The notes below the pieces were generated by a model. The model did no database searches. It was not told where the DNA came from and saw only the letters and a program-made list of their open reading frames with translations. From a virus (Duplodnaviria; Heunggongvirae; Uroviricota; Caudoviricetes), in IMG/VR virus record IMGVR_UViG_2690316184_000007: a stretch of 16,468 bases of DNA; one strand, 5' to 3'. The position numbers were made by a program, and so were the translations under genes. Shown here piece after piece: positions 4,713-15,229 of this stretch (position 1 is the stretch's first letter; each line of letters opens with the position of its first letter).

Positions 4713-5194
4713 GACAGCAGCCCTCCCACCGTTTTACTGATATCGCTTAAGGCAGACGTTGCCGTATCCTGCAAATTATTCAGCTGCGCACTGAGATCAC
4801 CGAACATATCGGACAGGGATTCATCCACCCGTTTGAGCGACAGGGTAAACTCAATCCGGCGCGGCATACCATCGCGGAAAAACTCCGTTTTAGTCTGATT
4901 CAGTCCCTCAATCACATACATGCCGTAAATCGTGCCGCTGCCTTCAATCAGAGGCCATGCTTTCCCCTGTTCTGCCATCTGCTCCAGTGCCAGCAACGAC
5001 AGCCTGCCGCCTGTTATCTCCGGCATAAGAACACCGGAAAGCGTCAGCATGTCGTTGTCCGGTCCCAGAAACTGCGTGGACGGACGACGATTTACCCGGC
5101 TGTTAGCCGCATGTCGCCAGCTGCGCTGATACTGCAGTTCCTGATACGGCACGGTGCGCAGCATAAACACGTACAATCCCAGCACCATCATCAT
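4709..5194 (-). CDS. U: P2 gpU-like tail protein, 161 aa
   Basis: 161-aa ORF between the T remnant and D with ATGA overlaps at both ends; size and position match P2 gpU. Confidence 0.8.
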   Translation of the reverse strand: MMMVLGLYVFMLRTVPYQELQYQRSWRHAANSRVNRRPSTQFLGPDNDMLTLSGVLMPEITGGRLSLLALEQMAEQGKAWPLIEGSGTIYGMYVIEGLNQTKTEFFRDGMPRRIEFTLSLKRVDESLSDMFGDLSAQLNNLQDTATSALSDISKTVGGLLS

Positions 5195-5646
5195 GCGTCG
5201 TATCCCCCCTGATCGCTGTAGTTACTCCTGGCTTTTGCCTTCAGCCTGCGTTCACGTTCATCAAGCTGGCGGGCCACCTCCCGCGCAATATCCTGCGCAC
5301 TTTGTCCTGGCTGCGTCTGAATAATGATCTGCGTCGGTGCCTCAATCCGTTGAGCGGGCGGCACAGTGGCTGCACGACTCACCATTGCTTCACCGCCTTT
5401 CGTGGGAAGTGCCAAAGGATGCAACGGTGGAAGCTCTGCTGGCGCGGCAGCAACACCCATCATTCCGGCAACAACGGCAGCCAGTGCAGCTGTATTTCTC
5501 CGGCTGGTCACATTTGCCGGGCCGTTAACAATTTCCGGCCCGTTTTCACCGACGATGCCAAACTGCCCGCGCGGGATATAGCCGCCGCTGTCATACATCC
5601 CCGCAAAGCCATATCCCCATGCCCGGTTATCTTTCTGCCATCCCAT
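5191..5646 (-). pseudogene. T: 3' remnant of the tail tape-measure gene T (C-terminal ~150 codons only)
   Basis: Reading frame overlaps the U start by ATGA as T does in P2, but an in-frame stop lies at 5656-5658 and the upstream DNA encodes a portal fragment on the opposite strand. Gly/Ala-rich C-terminal sequence is typical of tape-measure ends. Confidence 0.65.
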
Positions 5647-6122
5647 CCGCTTTGCTCAACGAGTCCGCCACGCTGTTCCGCCGCAAGTATTACATCAACG
5701 GCAGCCATGCAGGCTTCATCATGTATATGACCGATGCCGCGCAGAATCAGGAGGATGTGAACAATCTCCGCAATGCGATGAAAAGCGCCAAAGGCCCTGG
5801 CAACTTCCGCAACCTGTTTATGTACTCGCCTAACGGCAAAAAGGACGGGATTCAGATCATCCCGTTGTCAGAAGTCGCGGCGAAGGATGAGTTTCTGAAT
5901 ATCAAAAATGTCAGCCGCGATGACATGATGGCAGCGCATCGTGTGCCGCCGCAAATGATGGGGATTATGCCGAATAATGTTGGGGGGTTTGGGGATGTGG
6001 AGAAGGCAAGTAATGTATTTGTTCGTAACGAACTTATCCCCTTACAAAAACGTATCGAACAATTAAATCAATGGATAGGAAACACAATTATTAATTTTTT
6101 ACCATATTCTCTCCAAAGTTAA
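5619..6122 (+). pseudogene. Q: 3' fragment of the portal gene Q (C-terminal ~150 codons)
   Basis: Translation ...RVPPQMMGIMPNNVGGFGDVEKASNVFVRNELIPLQKRIEQLN... is recognised as the C-terminal region of P2-type portal proteins. The ORF is about half the full portal length and has no plausible upstream continuation. Confidence 0.65.
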
Positions 6123-6134
6123 AAAATAGCATAT

Positions 6135-6157
6135 GGGTGCATAATGTTTATGCACCC
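6135..6157. terminator. Bidirectional hairpin terminator between convergent Q' and the TIR gene
   Basis: Perfect 9-bp inverted repeat GGGTGCATA-atgtt-TATGCACCC in the 40-bp gap between the two convergent stops; T-rich tract on the minus-strand side (atatgctatttttt). Confidence 0.5.
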
Positions 6158-6162
6158 TCTTA

Positions 6163-6780
6163 TTACCAGTTAAAAATTGATGAGCTGCGAATTGCAGGAA
6201 CATCCGATGGATTTCGTTTAGCAGCTGGTTCCATCAACTTACGCTTATTAAATGCCTGATCAATATAATACTCAGGATTTTTAATAAAGACAGAGTATTT
6301 TACCAATGCACAATATACGTCAGAGTCATTATAATGGGGAACTGTTTTTTCATAAACATGATTCTTTCTAACCAGATAAGGCAAATAATAATCATATCCC
6401 AAACCTGGCGTTCTTAGACTTATAGAACATCCGCATGATGGATCTGCACATACTGCAGGAGTAAACACACTGTCGTAAATTTCATCTCTGATAACACCAA
6501 TTAGACCATTATAGTTTTCTCCCCAGAGTGATGCTTGAATTTCAGTGTTTACAAATGGACGATTTTTGGTTTCCGTTCCAATAAGAACGACAGTAACCGT
6601 TGAGTCTTTTAAAAAATCCTCACGAATAGTCCTCATTATTGTTTCATCAGTGTTAGTTGTACTAATGTCACCATCACTTACCGACTTATCAATAAACGAT
6701 TCTCCTCCGAATAAATCAATAATCTCATCTTTGAGATCTTGTTCGTTAGCATGATGATAACTAAGAAACGTCTTATGCAT
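6163..6780 (-). CDS. TIR-like domain protein, ThsB-like (DUF1863 / PF08937-type), 205 aa
   Basis: N-terminus MHKTFLSYHH... and the core STVTVVLIGTETKNRPFVNTEIQAS resemble the B. cereus ThsB pattern as I recall it (VFFSFHY ... VTCVLIGSQTFNRRWVRYEI), including a Glu at the expected catalytic position (E80). Start ATG overlaps the upstream gene's stop (TAATG). Strongly AT-rich relative to flanking prophage DNA. Confidence 0.7.
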   Translation of the reverse strand: MHKTFLSYHHANEQDLKDEIIDLFGGESFIDKSVSDGDISTTNTDETIMRTIREDFLKDSTVTVVLIGTETKNRPFVNTEIQASLWGENYNGLIGVIRDEIYDSVFTPAVCADPSCGCSISLRTPGLGYDYYLPYLVRKNHVYEKTVPHYNDSDVYCALVKYSVFIKNPEYYIDQAFNKRKLMEPAAKRNPSDVPAIRSSSIFNW

Positions 6781-7511
6781 TATTCACTCCATTTATCAAC
6801 ATTTATATCAAACTCTTTGACTACCTTATCATTGAAGAAATCGTTTACTTCTTTAAAACCTTCCAATACTTGACTAAAATGATAATAATGCTTTTGTATA
6901 ATACTTATAGGGGTTAAATGATACGGCAATGATATAAATTCGCCGTTAGGGTCTCTATCCTTTGTGGTCACTTTATCATGATCTGAAACATATTTATGCC
7001 ATCTCCGATAATTATTTTGATGTTTTGTTAAAAAAGAGTTTAAGGTTTTCAAAATTTCATTTGAAAGTAAATACAGTTTTTTATCTCTTTTTTTCTTCAC
7101 ATCTAGTAATTTCATTTCATCTCTAATGAATTTATAGCACTCATAATATGAGTTTAAAACTTCTTCAATTGAGTCATAATTCGGATCAAATTTAAATAAT
7201 GTTCGCTTCGTATCCAGATAATTTTTTACGCTCTTTTTAAAAAGAAGATCAGACTTATTTAGTAAAATATTAATACCACCAAAACTAAGTTGCTCCAATC
7301 TCAATGAATATCTTTGATGAAATGCACCGACCAGCAAGATATAAGCAACTAAAAATAGTATTAATACTGATAAAAAAGCACGAATTATGCTTACATTTGA
7401 CATGAAATTAACTATAAACCACCATTTTTCAAACGGTGAAAACGGAATGCTCCCCATGATAATAAGTAGAAGAACAAAGATACAACTCCATAAAACCCAC
7501 AATCTGTACAT
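6780..7511 (-). CDS. Membrane protein with two N-terminal transmembrane helices and a ~150-aa Lys/Tyr/Asn-rich C-terminal domain of unknown function; first gene of the TIR operon
   Basis: ORF-track frame extends to a TTG at 7556; I prefer the ATG at 7509-7511 (MYRLWVLWSCIFVLLLIIMGSI...), preceded by AAAAAGGA. Hydrophobic helices at about residues 4-22 and 50-75 of the ATG-start protein. The C-terminal domain has no Gly-rich Macro motif and no SIR2-like motif I can see. Confidence 0.6.
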   Translation of the reverse strand: MYRLWVLWSCIFVLLLIIMGSIPFSPFEKWWFIVNFMSNVSIIRAFLSVLILFLVAYILLVGAFHQRYSLRLEQLSFGGINILLNKSDLLFKKSVKNYLDTKRTLFKFDPNYDSIEEVLNSYYECYKFIRDEMKLLDVKKKRDKKLYLLSNEILKTLNSFLTKHQNNYRRWHKYVSDHDKVTTKDRDPNGEFISLPYHLTPISIIQKHYYHFSQVLEGFKEVNDFFNDKVVKEFDINVDKWSE

Positions 7512-7663
7512 AAGAAAGATCCTTTTTCTTTTTATAATACTGCAACTACACCTCAAGTCAAAACCCTCTTCTGATATTACCCTCTACTACAGTAACCCAT
7601 CACATGACCTCCGACTTATCAGAAGACTAGCCAAACTTTCTCAATCAAATCAGGTTGCGCGCG

Positions 7664-7682
7664 CTCGTATCCCCGCCACGCC
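7664..7682 (-). other. cos-like site (P2/186-type cohesive-end sequence)
   Basis: Minus strand reads GGCGTGGCGGGGATACGAG. The first 13 nt match the 19-nt cohesive end of phage 186 as I recall it (GGCGTGGCGGGGAAAGCAT; P2 GGCGAGGCGGGGAAAGCAC). Recalled from memory, not checked. Confidence 0.4.
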
Positions 7683-7731
7683 TGCCCGCTTTATGTAGTG
7701 GTTTTCATGCACCTGCATGATCTACGCAAAA

Positions 7732-8472: not shown

Positions 8473-10845
8473 TTAATACAGGTTCCGCCATTTATCATCT
8501 TCCTTCAGACGCTGGTTCCGATAGAAGATACGCAGGCCTGCTCCTGATGGAATACTGCCACCGCGAAGGAGCAAATCGACTTCTTTCTCGCTGCCATCAA
8601 ATCCTCTGGACTTCAGTTCATAGACGAGCTGCTGATGCTGATGATCTGTAATTCGCTGTTTGTAGTCTTTACACCTTTTCGGTTTAACCAGGCGCAACCT
8701 TACTGCCAGCTCCCGGCGATCTTTTTTGCTCATACTGTGCAGGTAATCGTGCAACTCCTTGTCATCCATGCGGGTAATGTCCGTTCTGGTGTCCCCATCA
8801 GCTGATTTATCTTTCTCCTGTTGGTTCAAATTTTCAGCAAGGGGACAGTTATTGCCACGAGTCCAAGGGGCGCAAGCGCCCTGGTCGGCTGCCGCCTCCT
8901 GAACATCAACGGCCTTACGAACCATTTTCCACTTCACGGCATGAGTGCAGATCTTGCCCTCTGCAATAGGTGACCAGATGCCATAAATACGAATGCCGTG
9001 ATCGCCATAGGCGGTCGGCTCTTCGTTGATTTCATAAGCGGTTCTGATGAGGTGATATTTGCGGGGAACCAGTACGCCGCCCTGCTTCATGATGTAGGTG
9101 GCAAAACAACCAGCATCAGCAGCAGCCAGGATGGCATCAAGGCGCGGGTTATCCAGTACCCGCGCACCTGCTTTTTTGTCCCCCTGTTGCCTTGCCGCCT
9201 GACCAGCCAGCAATCGCAGTTCACGGTAAGCCTGACGCCCCGGAATGCCAAAGAAGCGGAATTGCTGAACACGATGCAGAGACGCCCAGGCATTAACGTA
9301 TTCAGCATTATCACGCAGGGATTTCCCCGTTTCCTTGCTGATCTCGCCAGCCAGACCACGCCCGTCAATGTTCTTACTGATGTATTTCGCGATGTAGCTT
9401 GTTGGCGTACCTTTGCGCGGGTTAATCAACTCAGACTTAAAGCGCGGCCCAGTGTTATTGCCCAGTTCCTCGCGGTCTTCACGGATGGCAAACTTACGCA
9501 GTAATGCAGTGATGGCGCGGCGGTCTTTTTTGCGCATAAAACACAACAGGTGCCAGTGAACTGTACCGTCATGATGCGGCTCAGCCACCCGCACGCCATA
9601 CCACCGCAATCCGGCTTTGTGCATCGCCTTACGAAATGCAGCAAACATGCCGACCAGATAATCACTGCTTTGTCTTACCGTCGCATTTGTCCAAGTTGGG
9701 TTGGGCCTGCCATTATTTAGCGTGGAATGGAAACGTGACGGACAGGTGATGGTGTAGAAAACGGCGCAGTCACCGCGCATTTCCGCGATAAGCTCCAGGC
9801 CTTTAACACAGGCCATCATCTCATTGCGGCGATGCGCAGGGTTGCTGCTGCTGGCGTTTACCACATCCTCCATGTCCAGCGTGTCGCCGTCTTCGTTCAC
9901 CAGTTCATGAGAACGAAAAAACTCCAGCGACTTACGGCGCTGCTCACGTTTATGCATCACGGCTTCATAGCTGACATAGGGAGATGCTTTTTTGCTGACC
10001 AGGCAGACAGCACGCAACTGCTCTTCCCGCCATTCGCAACGCATCTTCCATAATTTCCGGTACCACCAGTCAGCGCACAACATACGCGCCAGCGAACCCG
10101 GAATGAGTTCATAGGGCACGGGTTTACGGCGGTTTCTTTTCCGGCGGAGTTGCTCAAACGCAGGCGGGATGACATCCAGATGCAGGGTTTCCGCTGCCAC
10201 CTTTTCCCATGTCTTGCGGATTTCTTCTGGCTTAACGTCATCGGTGACATACAAATCGCCACAAGCTGCATCAAGGCACATGCTCATATGCGCAGCTACC
10301 AGGGTGGACAGGCGTTTCACCTGATCCTGACTCATTTCAGGCAGGATCAGCAGGCCGTCCAGCCCTTCATGGCTTGCCATAAAGCGAAAAGAAGTGGATA
10401 GCTGACAGTCGCGTACATGCTCCAGCCGTTCCAGACATGGCTTAATCGTCTCACGCAAATAGCGGGAATAAGCCTTTGGCCTGCCCAGGCTGCTGAAGTA
10501 TTCAATACGTTGCATCAGCGGCTTGCTGATATGGGAAGGCTGGGCATTGACGTCCGCCAGAATGACCATATCTGGATTAAAACGCTGCTGCTCATGCGCC
10601 AGCTTTGCCCGACTAATGAGCTTATCCTGCTCCATTTCGCGCTGGACAGGATCACGGGATTCATTAAAGAAATAACGCTCCCAGACCTGATCACTCAGTG
10701 CCTCGCGGCGCAGCTGTTCCTGCTCGTTATCGGCAGCGTACAGAGCGATCAGGTTTGAAAGCGCAGAAACTGAAGATTGCTCTTCTGTCTCTACGTAAGG
10801 ATTGATTGCTTTTTTCTCAGCATTCCAGGAATAGCTGTAGTTCAT
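8473..10845 (-). CDS. A: P2 gpA-type rolling-circle replication initiator (HUH endonuclease), ~790 aa
   Basis: Contains the HUH motif ([11 protein letters not shown]) and the two-tyrosine active-site motif ([13 protein letters not shown]). Start preferred at the ATG 10843-10845 (MNYSYSWN...), which overlaps the upstream stop as TAATG; the ORF track extends to 10896. Confidence 0.85.
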
Positions 10846-11675
10846 TACGCAATCTCCAGTTCGAGCTGTGAAGGCTGCAAACCATTCGACAGCCAATCAG
10901 AAACTGAAGGTGGGCGAACAGCTTCAATTGCACCTTTTAAAATTGCGCAACGGTTTTTCAGAATGACAGCTTTCAGCTCCTTTTCCGTCAGATTGCGCGA
11001 ATACTCAGCCTCCTGAATAGCCCGCGTCAGCTCAGGATATTTGCTATTAAATTTGGGGACATTGCAGGCAAGATTTGTACTGTCGGCAGTCGCCAGTGGG
11101 TAATTTCCCAACACACGACCGTCAAGCATGCGCAAACCATGAACAGCTGTTTTGAAATTGTGTCGGCAATAAATTGCTTCAAAAGCGTCCTGCATACGAC
11201 GATGCCAGTGCGCAGTTCTGATAGCCGCATATTCACCAGACGATCCAAAGCAGACACGAGGCCATTCACGACATAGCTCGATAAGCCGATCGATTGACTC
11301 GTGCAGATGCCAGACGGGAGTTGCCTTCCCGTAGAACATTTTCGGAACTTCGTTTATCAGGGCATCATTGTCACGTTCACCTCCGTCCACAACATCAGGA
11401 ATGACAAAAAAAGCGACCTTAGGATGGTGGTAATAGTTCAGGAGCCATTTATAAAAATCACTCCAGTTAATTTTTAGCCCACGCACCCATGCAGAAAATG
11501 CGCCGTTATCAATGCCGACGACCTGAGCGTGCTGAATGGACGCCGCAATCTGATCTGGTCGTACATAGGAGACGAAAGCGCCAGCTCCGCTCACCGCAAT
11601 ACGATGAACGTCGCCAGCACTTCCCCAGACAGGCGTCCCATGGAAATGATGAATTCCGTGGTGCATTTCTTTCAC
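10845..11675 (-). CDS. Conserved prophage early-operon protein of unknown function, 273-276 aa, His-rich N-terminus
   Basis: Long ORF between dam and A, coupled to both (GTG overlapping the dam stop, or ATG at 11664-11666; TAATG with A). No motif I can assign with confidence. Confidence 0.55.
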
Positions 11676-12526
11676 ACTTGCACCCCGAAAATAACAGTAG
11701 AGTCACGTCCCCTACTAAAATCGGCACTAAACCAATTAGCAGATTTAGTGGCAATCATCTCTGTTGCAAATTTTCCCTCCCCCGCTGCAACGCCGATGCT
11801 GCGTTTCGCCCTGATGTAGTGGTGAGTGAAATTACGATAAAGGGACCGGGTCAAAGACGTGTTACTGTTAGAAACAATGACCGGATGTCCTTCTGATGAC
11901 CGATGTTCAAGAATGGATGCCAGGTGATACTGATCATCTTCAGTGAAACCATCAGTGTGATAGCCGGAAAACGTACCGTCATAAGGCGGATCGCAATACA
12001 CCACATCCCCCACCTTCAACATCGCCAGCGTTTCATCAAAGCTGGCGCAGATAAACGTTGCCCGCTGGGCTTTCTCTGCAAATGCGCGAATTTCTTTTTC
12101 AGGGAAATACGGATTTTTATAATTACCGTAGGGAATGTTGAAATGCCCGCTCTTGTTATAGCGACATAAACCACGGTAACCGTGACGATTGAGATACAGG
12201 AAATATACCGCTTTCATGAAATCAGTAATTTCAGTGGAGTAATTAAACTCCTGCCTTATGTTGTAATAAGCCACCTCCCTGTTTGCTTCCTCAAATAAAA
12301 CTCTGGCACGAGATATAAACGCCTCACAATCAGCAGCAACCTTTTTATAGAGGTTGATTAAATCAGGATTAATATCCGCAACAAGATAGCTGGGATAATC
12401 CGTCTCCATCATCACTGCACAGGAACCCGCGAAAGGTTCAACCAGTCGCGGGCCAGCAGGAAGATGCTTTTTCAGTTCGGACATTATGGCGGTTTTATTT
12501 CCTGCCCATTTCAGGATGGTGCTCAT
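11672..12526 (-). CDS. dam: DNA adenine methyltransferase (Dam-like, D12-class N6-adenine MTase), ~284 aa
   Basis: AdoMet-binding motif ([10 protein letters not shown]) followed by the catalytic DPPY motif ([12 protein letters not shown]), in the order typical of Dam-group enzymes. Start at the internal ATG 12524-12526 ([11 protein letters not shown]...), overlapping the upstream stop as ATGA. Confidence 0.85.
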
Positions 12527-13563: not shown

Positions 13564-14079
13564 TCACAGCAAACCGAATGAAGCACCGAGGCCAGTCACG
13601 GTATCAACTGCACTCGCCATCGCAGGATTAGCCTGTAAACGGGCCTGCAATGAAACAGCAGCCAGCGCCATCAGTCGTGTAACAGAGTTAATGCTGCTGA
13701 TCGCATCACGACGGCCTGCACTGGTTTTTACATCGCCAGAAACCGCACCTGCCGCGACACGCCCTATCTCTGCAGTTGCACTCATGACGTAATGCGGCAG
13801 TTTCTCTTTTGCCACCTCATTAATCGGTACACATGGCAGGCAGTGAATCTGTGCCAGAAAGCCATCTACCAGCGTTGAATCTTCAGTCAGATCGGTAAGC
13901 AACCAGATTTCTGGTGCGGTTAATAAATGAGGTTGAGCTGGGTTCAGCTTGTTCCGCAGAATCTGCACATTCATGCCTGCACGTTCTGCCAGTTGCACTA
14001 GGTTGTGGCGCAATGCGAATGCACGACAGGCTTCATCAAAATGTGGATGTTTGGAAACTTGGTAATCAAACATGGTCAA
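13564..14079 (-). CDS. cII: 186-type CII-like regulatory protein, 171 aa
   Basis: [26 protein letters not shown]... resembles the N-terminus of phage 186 CII as I recall it; size and position (second gene of the rightward early operon) fit. Confidence 0.65.
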
Positions 14080-14327: not shown

Positions 14328-14446
14328 GATGCAACATTCCTCGTTTAATGATGATTAATCAGGACGAATACGGATCGTTTGTATTTTGTGAACACCATAA
14401 ACATACGATCGCACAGTGAAATCGTCAAGATAAAAGTTCACTTGGA
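14328..14446. promoter_or_regulatory. Lysis-lysogeny switch region (divergent promoters/operators between apl and cI)
   Basis: 119-bp gap between divergent starts. Contains inverted hexamers GTGAAC (14388-14393) and GTTCAC (14436-14441), and two GATC sites (14373-14376, 14407-14410) inside direct repeats ATACGGATCG / ATACGATCG. Confidence 0.5.
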
Positions 14447-15022
14447 GTGACCATGAATTTGGAGAAAGGCGGACGAGGCGCTATAGAGCGCATGGTAGAA
14501 GCTTATGGATTCAAAACTCGACAGGCGTTGTGCGATCATTTAGGAATCTCTAAAAGTACACTCGCCACACGCTACATGCGTGACTCATTCCCAGCAGAAT
14601 GGGTAATCCAGTGCGCCCTTGAAACGGGCACCTCGCTTAATTGGCTCACAACCGGACATGGTTCAAAGCAAACTTCAGGTAATACAAATACTATGGAAGT
14701 TGCTAAATATGTATTATCTGATGGTGCCTTGCGTGAAGACGGTTTTTATATTTTTGATAAGGGATTTCTACCCTCTACGTTTAAAAAACCTTTTGTCATC
14801 ACAGATAACAATTCTGAATTTATTTGTGATAAAGAATTTGATGATATACGTGACGGTAAATGGGTAATAAGTATTGATGGCGAAATAACAATCCGCGACA
14901 TTACTCGTTTACCCGGTGGAAGAATCTTCGTTGAAGGTGGAAACAGAGCCTTCGAGTGCAAGATAGAAGATGTTGAAATAATTGGGAAAATTATAAGTTT
15001 AACAATTAAGTACGTTAGGTAA
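14447..15022 (+). CDS. cI: CI-type immunity repressor (186-like), 191 aa
   Basis: N-terminal DNA-binding region (...FKTRQALCDHLGISKSTLATRYMRD...), length close to 186 CI, divergent from apl/cII and followed by int. Confidence 0.8.
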   Translation: MTMNLEKGGRGAIERMVEAYGFKTRQALCDHLGISKSTLATRYMRDSFPAEWVIQCALETGTSLNWLTTGHGSKQTSGNTNTMEVAKYVLSDGALREDGFYIFDKGFLPSTFKKPFVITDNNSEFICDKEFDDIRDGKWVISIDGEITIRDITRLPGGRIFVEGGNRAFECKIEDVEIIGKIISLTIKYVR

Positions 15023-15037
15023 TACCGGGAGGAAACT

Positions 15038-15229
15038 ATGCTTGGTAAGGTATTTTTTGTGGTTTTATCATGCTCTTTGTTATTAAACCCACTAACTACC
15101 TATGCTAAAAATTATCCTTGTTCTGGGAAAAAGGGAGGTGTCTCTCACTGTACCTCCGATGGAAAGTTCGTTTGCAATGATGGAACTATTAGTAAATCAA
15201 AAAAAATCTGTACTAAAAACTCGCGATAA
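15038..15229 (+). CDS. Small secreted Cys-rich, Lys-rich peptide (63-aa precursor, predicted signal peptide)
   Basis: Strong Shine-Dalgarno (GGGAGGAAACT-ATG); N-terminal [23 protein letters not shown] has signal-peptide character; mature ~40-aa part carries 4 Cys. AT-rich; not part of the canonical P2/186 backbone between the repressor and int. Confidence 0.5.

Follow-up and report, generated by a model that had tools for sequence, protein, structure and literature searches.

We report that a gene filed as 'hypothetical protein' in the early operon of an Escherichia coli prophage probably encodes a compact, zinc-less phage DpdA, that is, a transglycosylase acting on guanine in DNA, from the 'DpdA-only' (singleton) clade found in phages of gamma-proteobacteria. 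The gene lies in a 16,468-nt stretch of DNA (IMG/VR record IMGVR_UViG_2690316184_000007, Caudoviricetes; hereafter, the window), which consists of E. coli chromosome, with a Grx-like open reading frame (ORF) and neighboring host ORFs at its left end, and of a P2/186-like prophage. It occupies positions 10845..11675 of the minus strand and encodes 276 aa when read from a GTG codon (translated as M), between a dam gene for an N6-adenine DNA methyltransferase and gene A for a P2-type replication endonuclease. Coordinates of the gene, of its predicted catalytic codons and of the surrounding prophage features are collected in Table 1.

Comparison with phage protein families matched the ORF to PHROG 887 (phrog_887, labeled 'queuine tRNA-ribosyltransferase') with an E value of 2.4e-96 over residues 2-275. 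In tblastn searches of phage genomes, 105 records matched, with identities of 75-76% for the P2-like Salmonella phages SI22 and SEN1, 54.7% for Pantoea phage MED16 and 34% for Salmonella phage 7-11; matches in BTP1, SfI and SPN3UB were shorter, covering about 71% of the query. The published list of DpdA-only phages includes SEN1 (YP_009217891), 7-11, BTP1 and SfI (Hutinet 2019, Supplementary Data 1), and SEN1 gp38 and SW9 gp39 have been reported as the closest viral homologs of the MED16 DpdA (PMC8306585). Apart from these mentions of SEN1 and SW9, we found no literature on DpdA in P2-like or temperate phages. An alignment of 73 diverse relatives served as the family profile for hhalign and for residue conservation. 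Against the validated DpdA of phage 9g, this profile gave a probability of 98.05% (E = 1.4e-13) and paired D56 with the Asp of 'LDSGAFS', H123 with the His of 'PCFH', H179 with H196 and D198 with D215 ('SCDSS'), the 9g residue numbering (H196) having been counted by us. A first-pass annotation made from the letters alone had left the protein unassigned, ventured a DpdA-like transglycosylase as a speculative guess and proposed profile comparison and structure prediction as checks. The guess was borne out by the PHROG, SEN1, MED16 and 9g matches and by the catalytic residues described below. 'Unassigned' is correct for RefSeq, Pfam and NCBIfam, not for PHROGs or for the literature, where the SEN1 ortholog is listed.

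The proposed structure prediction yielded an AlphaFold2 model (pLDDT 93.9, pTM 0.90) with eight β strands alternating with helices, a TGT-like (β/α)8 barrel that places the fold in the tRNA-guanine transglycosylase (TGT) superfamily. Structure matches in BFVD were phage 'queuine tRNA-ribosyltransferases'. Six residues (D56, D94, H123, H179, D198 and S199) are invariant in 73/73 sequences and sit at or just past the C-terminal ends of strands β-3, 4, 5, 7 and 8; the active site of a TIM barrel is located at these strand ends. The set comprises the predicted nucleophile, acid/base and base-recognition Asp residues and the conserved His. Its order parallels that of D95/D130/H181/D256 in bDpdA, the enzyme of the Salmonella Montevideo Dpd system (PMC10164549), and of D73/D122/K154/H226/D248 in Cap10, an enzyme of type IV CBASS. 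D56 would correspond to bDpdA D95, as suggested by the motif D-x3-F (bDpdA D95...F99, PMC10164549), D94 to bDpdA D130 and Cap10 D122 by residue order and strand position only, H123 to bDpdA H181 and Cap10 K154 by order, and D198 to bDpdA D256, mutation of which abolishes exchange (PMC10164549). The 9g residue aligned with H179, H196, is the conserved His of DpdA (Hutinet 2019), and Cap10 has an analogous H226/D248 pair. We infer the one-to-one mapping to bDpdA and Cap10; the mapping to 9g, D94 excepted, comes from the profile alignment.

The CxCxxC zinc motif occurs in 0/73 family members, none of the Cys residues is conserved and the tail past the nucleophile Asp measures 30-99 residues (median 58 in the 73 sequences), which together indicate that the family lacks the zinc-pinned insertion Ins8 known from bDpdA and TGT. 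Enterobacterial members have in its place a helical extension of about 70 residues, with helices at 214-222, 231-251, 258-263 and 270-275 and with R242 and E251 conserved. Since the motif was not found in 9g DpdA either, its absence speaks against bDpdA or TGT proper, not against a phage DpdA.

Table 1 Coordinates of the dpdA-like gene, its predicted functional residues and associated prophage features in the window
Feature	Position	Strand	Remarks
dpdA-like gene	10845..11675	(-)	Start GTG 11675 (276 aa) or ATG 11666 (273 aa); probable singleton-type phage DpdA, TGT-superfamily TIM barrel
D56 codon, IDNGAF motif, end of β-3	11508..11510	(-)	Predicted general acid/base and base-edge contact; aligned to 9g 'LDSGAFS' Asp
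D94 codon, IPD motif, after β-4	11394..11396	(-)	Invariant 73/73
H123 codon, PVWH motif, end of β-5	11307..11309	(-)	Predicted base-binding residue; aligned to His of 9g 'PCFH'
H179 codon, HGLR motif, on β-7	11139..11141	(-)	Partner of predicted nucleophile; aligned to 9g H196
D198 codon, ADST motif, end of β-8	11082..11084	(-)	Predicted catalytic nucleophile; aligned to 9g D215
C-terminal helical extension, residues ~209-276	10848..11051	(-)	Specific to enterobacterial clade; most relatives are conserved only up to about residue 207
dam, D12-class N6-adenine DNA methyltransferase, DPPY motif	11672..12526	(-)	PF02086 E 4.9e-76; RefSeq start maps to 12526; directly upstream, same operon
Gene A, P2-type rolling-circle replication endonuclease	8473..10845	(-)	PF05840 E 7e-128; RefSeq; directly downstream, start overlaps dpdA stop
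Candidate early promoter (Pe), TTGACG-17-TATGTT	14400..14428	(-)	Consensus match only, 9/12; upstream of first early gene
186-type CI repressor	14447..15022	(+)	PF07022 and PF16452
Integrase	15581 to window end		

Among known enzymes, the singleton DpdAs (group 3 of Hutinet 2019; see also Simoliunas 2021) SEN1 gp38, SW9 gp39, MED16 gp38 and 7-11 gp032 share with the query the size class, the invariant D/D/H/H/D residues and the lack of phage preQ0 genes. SEN1 gp38 (YP_009217891) is 75% identical near full length and belongs to a phage that is also P2-like and has the gene ahead of its replication protein; MED16 gp38 (55%) and 7-11 gp032 (34%) likewise align near full length. MED16 also carries a Dam-type methylase. 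The copy studied here belongs to a defective element in E. coli and is 'hypothetical' in RefSeq, whereas MED16 and 7-11 are virulent phages. Their DNA has been analyzed: the virion DNA of MED16, a phage with dpdA only, contains the 7-deazaguanine mark dADG at 0.13% of G and traces of dPreQ0 (PMC8306585), and that of 7-11 contains dADG at 0.02% of G (Hutinet 2019).

The DpdA1 enzymes of the Queuovirinae phages 9g and CAjan show detectable homology to the query, with Asp, His, His and Asp at the same positions and an unrelated C-terminal region. They differ in setting and output: folE, queD, queE and queC lie beside dpdA in both phages (with gat-queC in 9g), whereas the query gene stands alone, and they modify up to ~25-30% of G, compared to <=0.13% in the relatives of the query. 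Expressed alone in E. coli, 9g DpdA inserted dPreQ0 into plasmid DNA from host preQ0 (Hutinet 2019). The bacterial bDpdA (PDB 7ui4), at 413 residues, includes a CxCx2Cx22H zinc site along with Ins1-3 and Ins8; it depends on the DpdB ATPase, and DpdC turns dPreQ0 into dADG (PMC10164549); the query lacks these features and partners. We therefore rejected membership in this group: zinc site and Ins8 are missing, and the gene is surrounded by dam, traR, A and phage regulators, with no dpdB (for a ParB-like ATPase), dpdC or dpdD-K beside it.

The family is chiefly one of prophage-like regions in Proteobacteria, with members in Actinobacteria, Acidobacteria and Planctomycetes as well. Among the nearest P2-like loci, the dpdA-like gene is invariably placed ahead of gene A, and dam is optional: the order is traR-dpdA-A in L004, L005, L007 and L012, dam-dpdA-A in L009 and dpdA-A in L006, where neither traR nor dam was detected. 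An obligatory dam-dpdA pair was thus rejected, as five of these loci (L004-L007 and L012) lack dam; the linkage is frequent, not obligatory. For a broader view, we surveyed 148 proteins encoded by the two genes on either side in 37 related loci (L004-L071). Pfam assigned seven of them to C5 cytosine DNA methylases, four to gene A, two to N6/N4 methylases and two to PAPS-reductase-like proteins; integrases and recombination or replication proteins were among the others, and a QueD-like (PTPS) protein was found once (1/148). The C5 methyltransferase was the commonest neighbor family, ahead of any replication protein, and it looks as if a DpdA-like gene is accompanied by whatever methyltransferase its prophage happens to have. 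In one case, the two functions are joined: Rosenbergiella metrosideri (L011, NZ_JALBCV010000011, 5977-7710 (+), one assembly only) has an uninterrupted 577-aa ORF with a DpdA domain, 62% identical to the query, and a D12 Dam domain (PF02086 at residues 310-554). Methyltransferase neighbors and the DpdA-Dam fusion support a DNA-modification cassette. Of the two roles that the first-pass annotation had suggested from the placement of the gene, DNA modification is backed by homology, these neighbors and the fusion, and a replication-accessory function is not supported by context.

Further composite ORFs were encountered in the survey. A Solirubrobacterales metagenome-assembled genome (L060, 5644-7713 (+)) contains a 689-aa ORF in which a DpdA domain is followed by a PAPS-reductase-like PP-loop domain, and at two other loci a PAPS_reduct gene is found no more than two genes away from dpdA. 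QueC belongs to the same PP-loop class; in distant clades, the PP-loop protein could serve as a different partner that activates 7-deazaguanine. Protein P0011 (421 aa) joins Dam residues 1-193 to DpdA residues 48-276 (100% identical), and P0121 (399 aa) joins DpdA residues 4-187 to the C terminus of a gpD baseplate hub. Both probably either arose by deletion as prophages decayed or reflect assembly errors.

For the activity, substrate base, target motif, expression timing and biological benefit of this DpdA-like protein, we infer the following scheme. During lytic growth, transcription of the early operon, which CI would repress in the lysogen, would include dpdA along with dam and gene A. The enzyme would flip a guanine out of duplex phage DNA into the barrel pocket, where D56, D94 and H123 may read the base. 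D198, oriented by H179 and assisted by D56, would then attack C1' and expel guanine through a covalent enzyme-DNA intermediate, to be resolved by a host-made 7-deazaguanine, namely preQ0 or possibly the amide ADG, from the queuosine pathway (FolE, QueD, QueE and QueC). The host is the predicted base source because the prophage has no synthesis genes of its own: no preQ0/G+ synthesis gene (folE, queC, queD or queE) is present among the window ORFs, nor is any que or folE gene present in the part of an intact sister prophage seen in strain RM10466 (L001), from int to the baseplate gene V, so that the host pool must be used. If MED16 and 7-11 are a guide, the DNA would carry few dPreQ0 or dADG marks, probably at specific motifs. 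By our arithmetic, 0.02-0.13% of G corresponds to about 3-22 sites in an assumed genome of 33 kb and 51% GC, which implies a long or rare target motif. With Dam methylation, such marks could form a small DNA-modification cassette for anti-restriction or self-marking.

Several observations weigh against this assignment. Pfam and NCBIfam scans gave no useful match, the sole Pfam match being an 11-bit β-propeller well below threshold; PADLOC also returned no match for the ORF. Among PDB sequences, phmmer with the ORF and hmmsearch with the profile retrieved only spurious weak matches (a coat protein and GCN4 coiled coils), and hhalign of the family profile to E. coli Tgt, taken as a single sequence, gave a probability of 0.7%, that is, no relationship. 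As a consequence, the link to TGT rests on structure and on transitivity via 9g DpdA. Pfam and NCBIfam likewise miss the 9g enzyme, a validated DpdA, along with its counterparts from MED16 and 7-11. In the hhalign comparison, D94 is set three residues away from the 9g Asp, and the protein has neither the zinc site nor the large insertion known from bDpdA and TGT. The connection of the singleton clade to dADG in 7-11 and MED16 is correlative, not genetic, and the level is very low; MED16 DNA was without dADG-attributable protection from the restriction enzymes tested (PMC8306585). Nor does the scheme explain why dADG is formed and not dPreQ0 if no DpdC-like hydratase takes part. Lastly, the window copy is part of a defective prophage and may never be expressed productively there.

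The most serious alternative accepts a DNA-acting enzyme of TGT fold and assigns it a role other than restriction evasion by bulk modification. A few site-specific marks could serve in regulation, in packaging or as a sign of self, for example by imitating the dADG of host Dpd systems; alternatively, the enzyme could bring about net base excision or be a near-neutral passenger in E. coli. We consider this unlikely on balance, while acknowledging what speaks for it. The only relatives analyzed have very little modification (0.02% and 0.13% of G), every G-containing enzyme not blocked by m6A cut MED16 DNA, and the authors of the MED16 study list the benefit as an open question (PMC8306585). The MED16 mark, dADG, is moreover the end product of the bacterial Dpd system (PMC10164549), and a defective prophage shared by 34 genomes retains the gene at >=99% identity. 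A protective cassette, however, fits better with the consistent company of DNA methyltransferases and with the DpdA-Dam fusion; DpdAs with full pathways do protect against restriction (Hutinet 2019), and nothing speaks directly for mimicry.

Two other readings would take the enzyme away from DNA altogether, and both appear very improbable. One is suggested by Cap10 (PDB 9ntn), the top structural match and sole pointer in this direction: the protein would act on protein-linked 7-deazaguanine in the manner of type IV CBASS (deazaguanylation). The query resembles Cap10 in its remodeled TGT fold with a His/Asp catalytic pair, at 12% identity. Cap10 works with Cap9 and a CD-NTase on protein-linked 7-amido-7-deazaguanine, and Cap9 (QueC-like), CD-NTase and effector are all absent from the window, L001 and the neighbor survey; membership was rejected because these required operon partners are missing. 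The other reading, in which the target is host or phage tRNA and a phage tRNA-guanine transglycosylase hijacks the queuosine pathway, draws on the TGT-superfamily fold and on the label of PHROG 887 and many GenBank phage records. That label, however, is inherited via distant homology. There is no PF01702 match even at E<=1 and no match of the family profile to E. coli Tgt (the 0.7% above), and at 276 residues, versus 375 in E. coli Tgt, the protein lacks the zinc subdomain and the insertions with which TGT binds tRNA and holds the anticodon stem-loop. It is homologous to the DNA-acting 9g DpdA, and the host has its own Tgt. For these reasons, tRNA-TGT membership was rejected as well.

Within the preferred assignment to DpdA, a more specific idea can be formulated, which we hold only as a long shot. 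Instead of being a weak version of the preQ0 insertases, the singleton clade may be a distinct enzyme type that installs ADG directly, or makes dADG without a DpdC-like hydratase, at a few long motifs. Together with a methyltransferase next to it or fused to it, as in Rosenbergiella, it may form a unit that obligatorily sets two marks, so as to imitate the 'self' marks of a host Dpd system or to escape a particular defense. If this were true, E. coli P2-like prophages would be a tractable model for host-dependent 7-deazaguanine DNA marking.

Turning to the gene itself, the ORF boundaries, length and N terminus were as the first-pass annotation had described them, and its impression of a conserved protein proved right. 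We identified 4313 homologs at E<=1e-5, forming 555 clusters at 50% identity, and a match to the ORF in 103/5426 complete E. coli genomes, with >=99% identity in 102. The homolog count and this presence in E. coli place the ORF far beyond a chance reading frame. In 15/15 records listed, it lies between dam and the replication endonuclease and is labeled 'hypothetical protein'. The His-rich N terminus remarked upon earlier does contain the His letters, which are mostly incidental: H12 (70/73) and H10 (49/73) are conserved and form an H-x-H-G motif on strand β-1, while H5 and H6 fall in mainly gapped columns and H9 is replaced by Ile in most relatives.

The start codon bears on the claim that stop and start codons overlap on both sides. 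Read from GTG (11675-11673), the ORF overlaps the dam stop TGA (11674-11672) by 4 nt (GTGA). The NCBI/RefSeq start for the identical gene is the ATG at codon 4, giving 273 aa (14001..14822 in L001) and a 5-nt gap behind the dam stop, with no overlap. Homologs of 276 aa in other genera have N termini equal in length to the GTG form, which mildly favors GTG. Downstream, the stop TAA (10847-10845) and the gene A ATG (10845-10843) overlap by 1 nt (TAATG), in agreement with RefSeq (in L001, gene A ends at 14001, where the ORF begins). A TTG at 10896, by this junction, marks only the mechanically longest ORF. The overlap therefore stands downstream and, upstream, from GTG only. Stoichiometric co-expression with dam and A, as had been concluded from it, is more than overlapping codons show. 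In L001, the DUF2732 gene and traR overlap by 1 nt and traR and dam by 4 nt; with overlaps throughout the early operon, tight coupling belongs to the operon and is not special to the dpdA-like gene.

The minus-strand early genes follow the order apl-like, cII, fil, DUF5347, DUF2732, traR/dksA zinc-finger, dam, dpdA, A and DinI-like; beyond the DinI-like gene lie a moron slot and then the late genes U, D and ogr. The consensus match upstream of the apl-like gene is a candidate Pe for the genes from apl-like through cII, fil, DUF5347, DUF2732, traR, dam and dpdA to A, and by analogy to phage 186 biology, CI is expected to silence this operon, including dpdA, in the lysogen. A tape-measure C-terminal fragment (5191-5646 (-)) abuts a portal fragment (5619-6122 (+); Pfam Phage_portal, partial), showing that the head and tail module between them is deleted and the prophage defective. 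The same junction, together with a TIR gene, recurs in APEC O78, ACN001 and other complete E. coli genomes, 34 in total and many from poultry. RM10466 (NZ_CP028381) contains an intact sister prophage with the same dam-ORF-A segment.

Additional features of the prophage were noted in passing. The 3'-terminal part of dam contains a hairpin (11717-11695 (-), 8 bp followed by TTATTTT), situated ~20 nt before the dpdA start codon. We rejected it as a functional terminator, with ten such sites in the region versus 7.5 expected by chance; it may mean nothing, and its position could affect dam-dpdA coupling. The P2 'tin/old' moron slot, from the portal fragment to the DinI-like gene, is occupied by a ThsB-like TIR-domain gene (6163-6780 (-); Pfam ThsB_TIR E 1e-14, PADLOC ThsB E 4e-12), preceded, with 1 nt shared, by a 258-aa ORF (6780-7556 (-)) that has hydrophobic N-terminal segments and gave no family match. 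This pair could be a two-gene Thoeris-like or novel TIR defense cassette. The slot between CI and int is variable: in the window, it holds a 63-aa ORF (15038-15229 (+)) with a hydrophobic, signal-peptide-like N terminus, and in RM10466 (L001 18178-19911) an AAA ATPase and a DUF4276 protein, possibly a defense pair.

The family was already known, a close P2-like ortholog (SEN1) is already catalogued as DpdA while the RefSeq entry here reads 'hypothetical', and the findings will not surprise specialists in the field. They close an annotation gap for a 'hypothetical protein' in about 100 complete E. coli genomes and many Enterobacteriaceae, for which Pfam and NCBIfam have no model that catches either the query or the validated phage DpdAs. 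'DpdA-only' phages account for 76/182 viruses (Hutinet 2019) and are the largest and least understood DpdA group, in which the base, the sites, the origin of dADG and the gain to the phage are at issue. For singleton DpdA biochemistry, a convenient system would be a P2-like E. coli prophage that can be induced and has dam-dpdA-A, in a host whose que genetics are well defined. The recurrent pairing with DNA methyltransferases and the DpdA-Dam fusion suggest that the early regions of prophages carry modular 'modification cassettes'.

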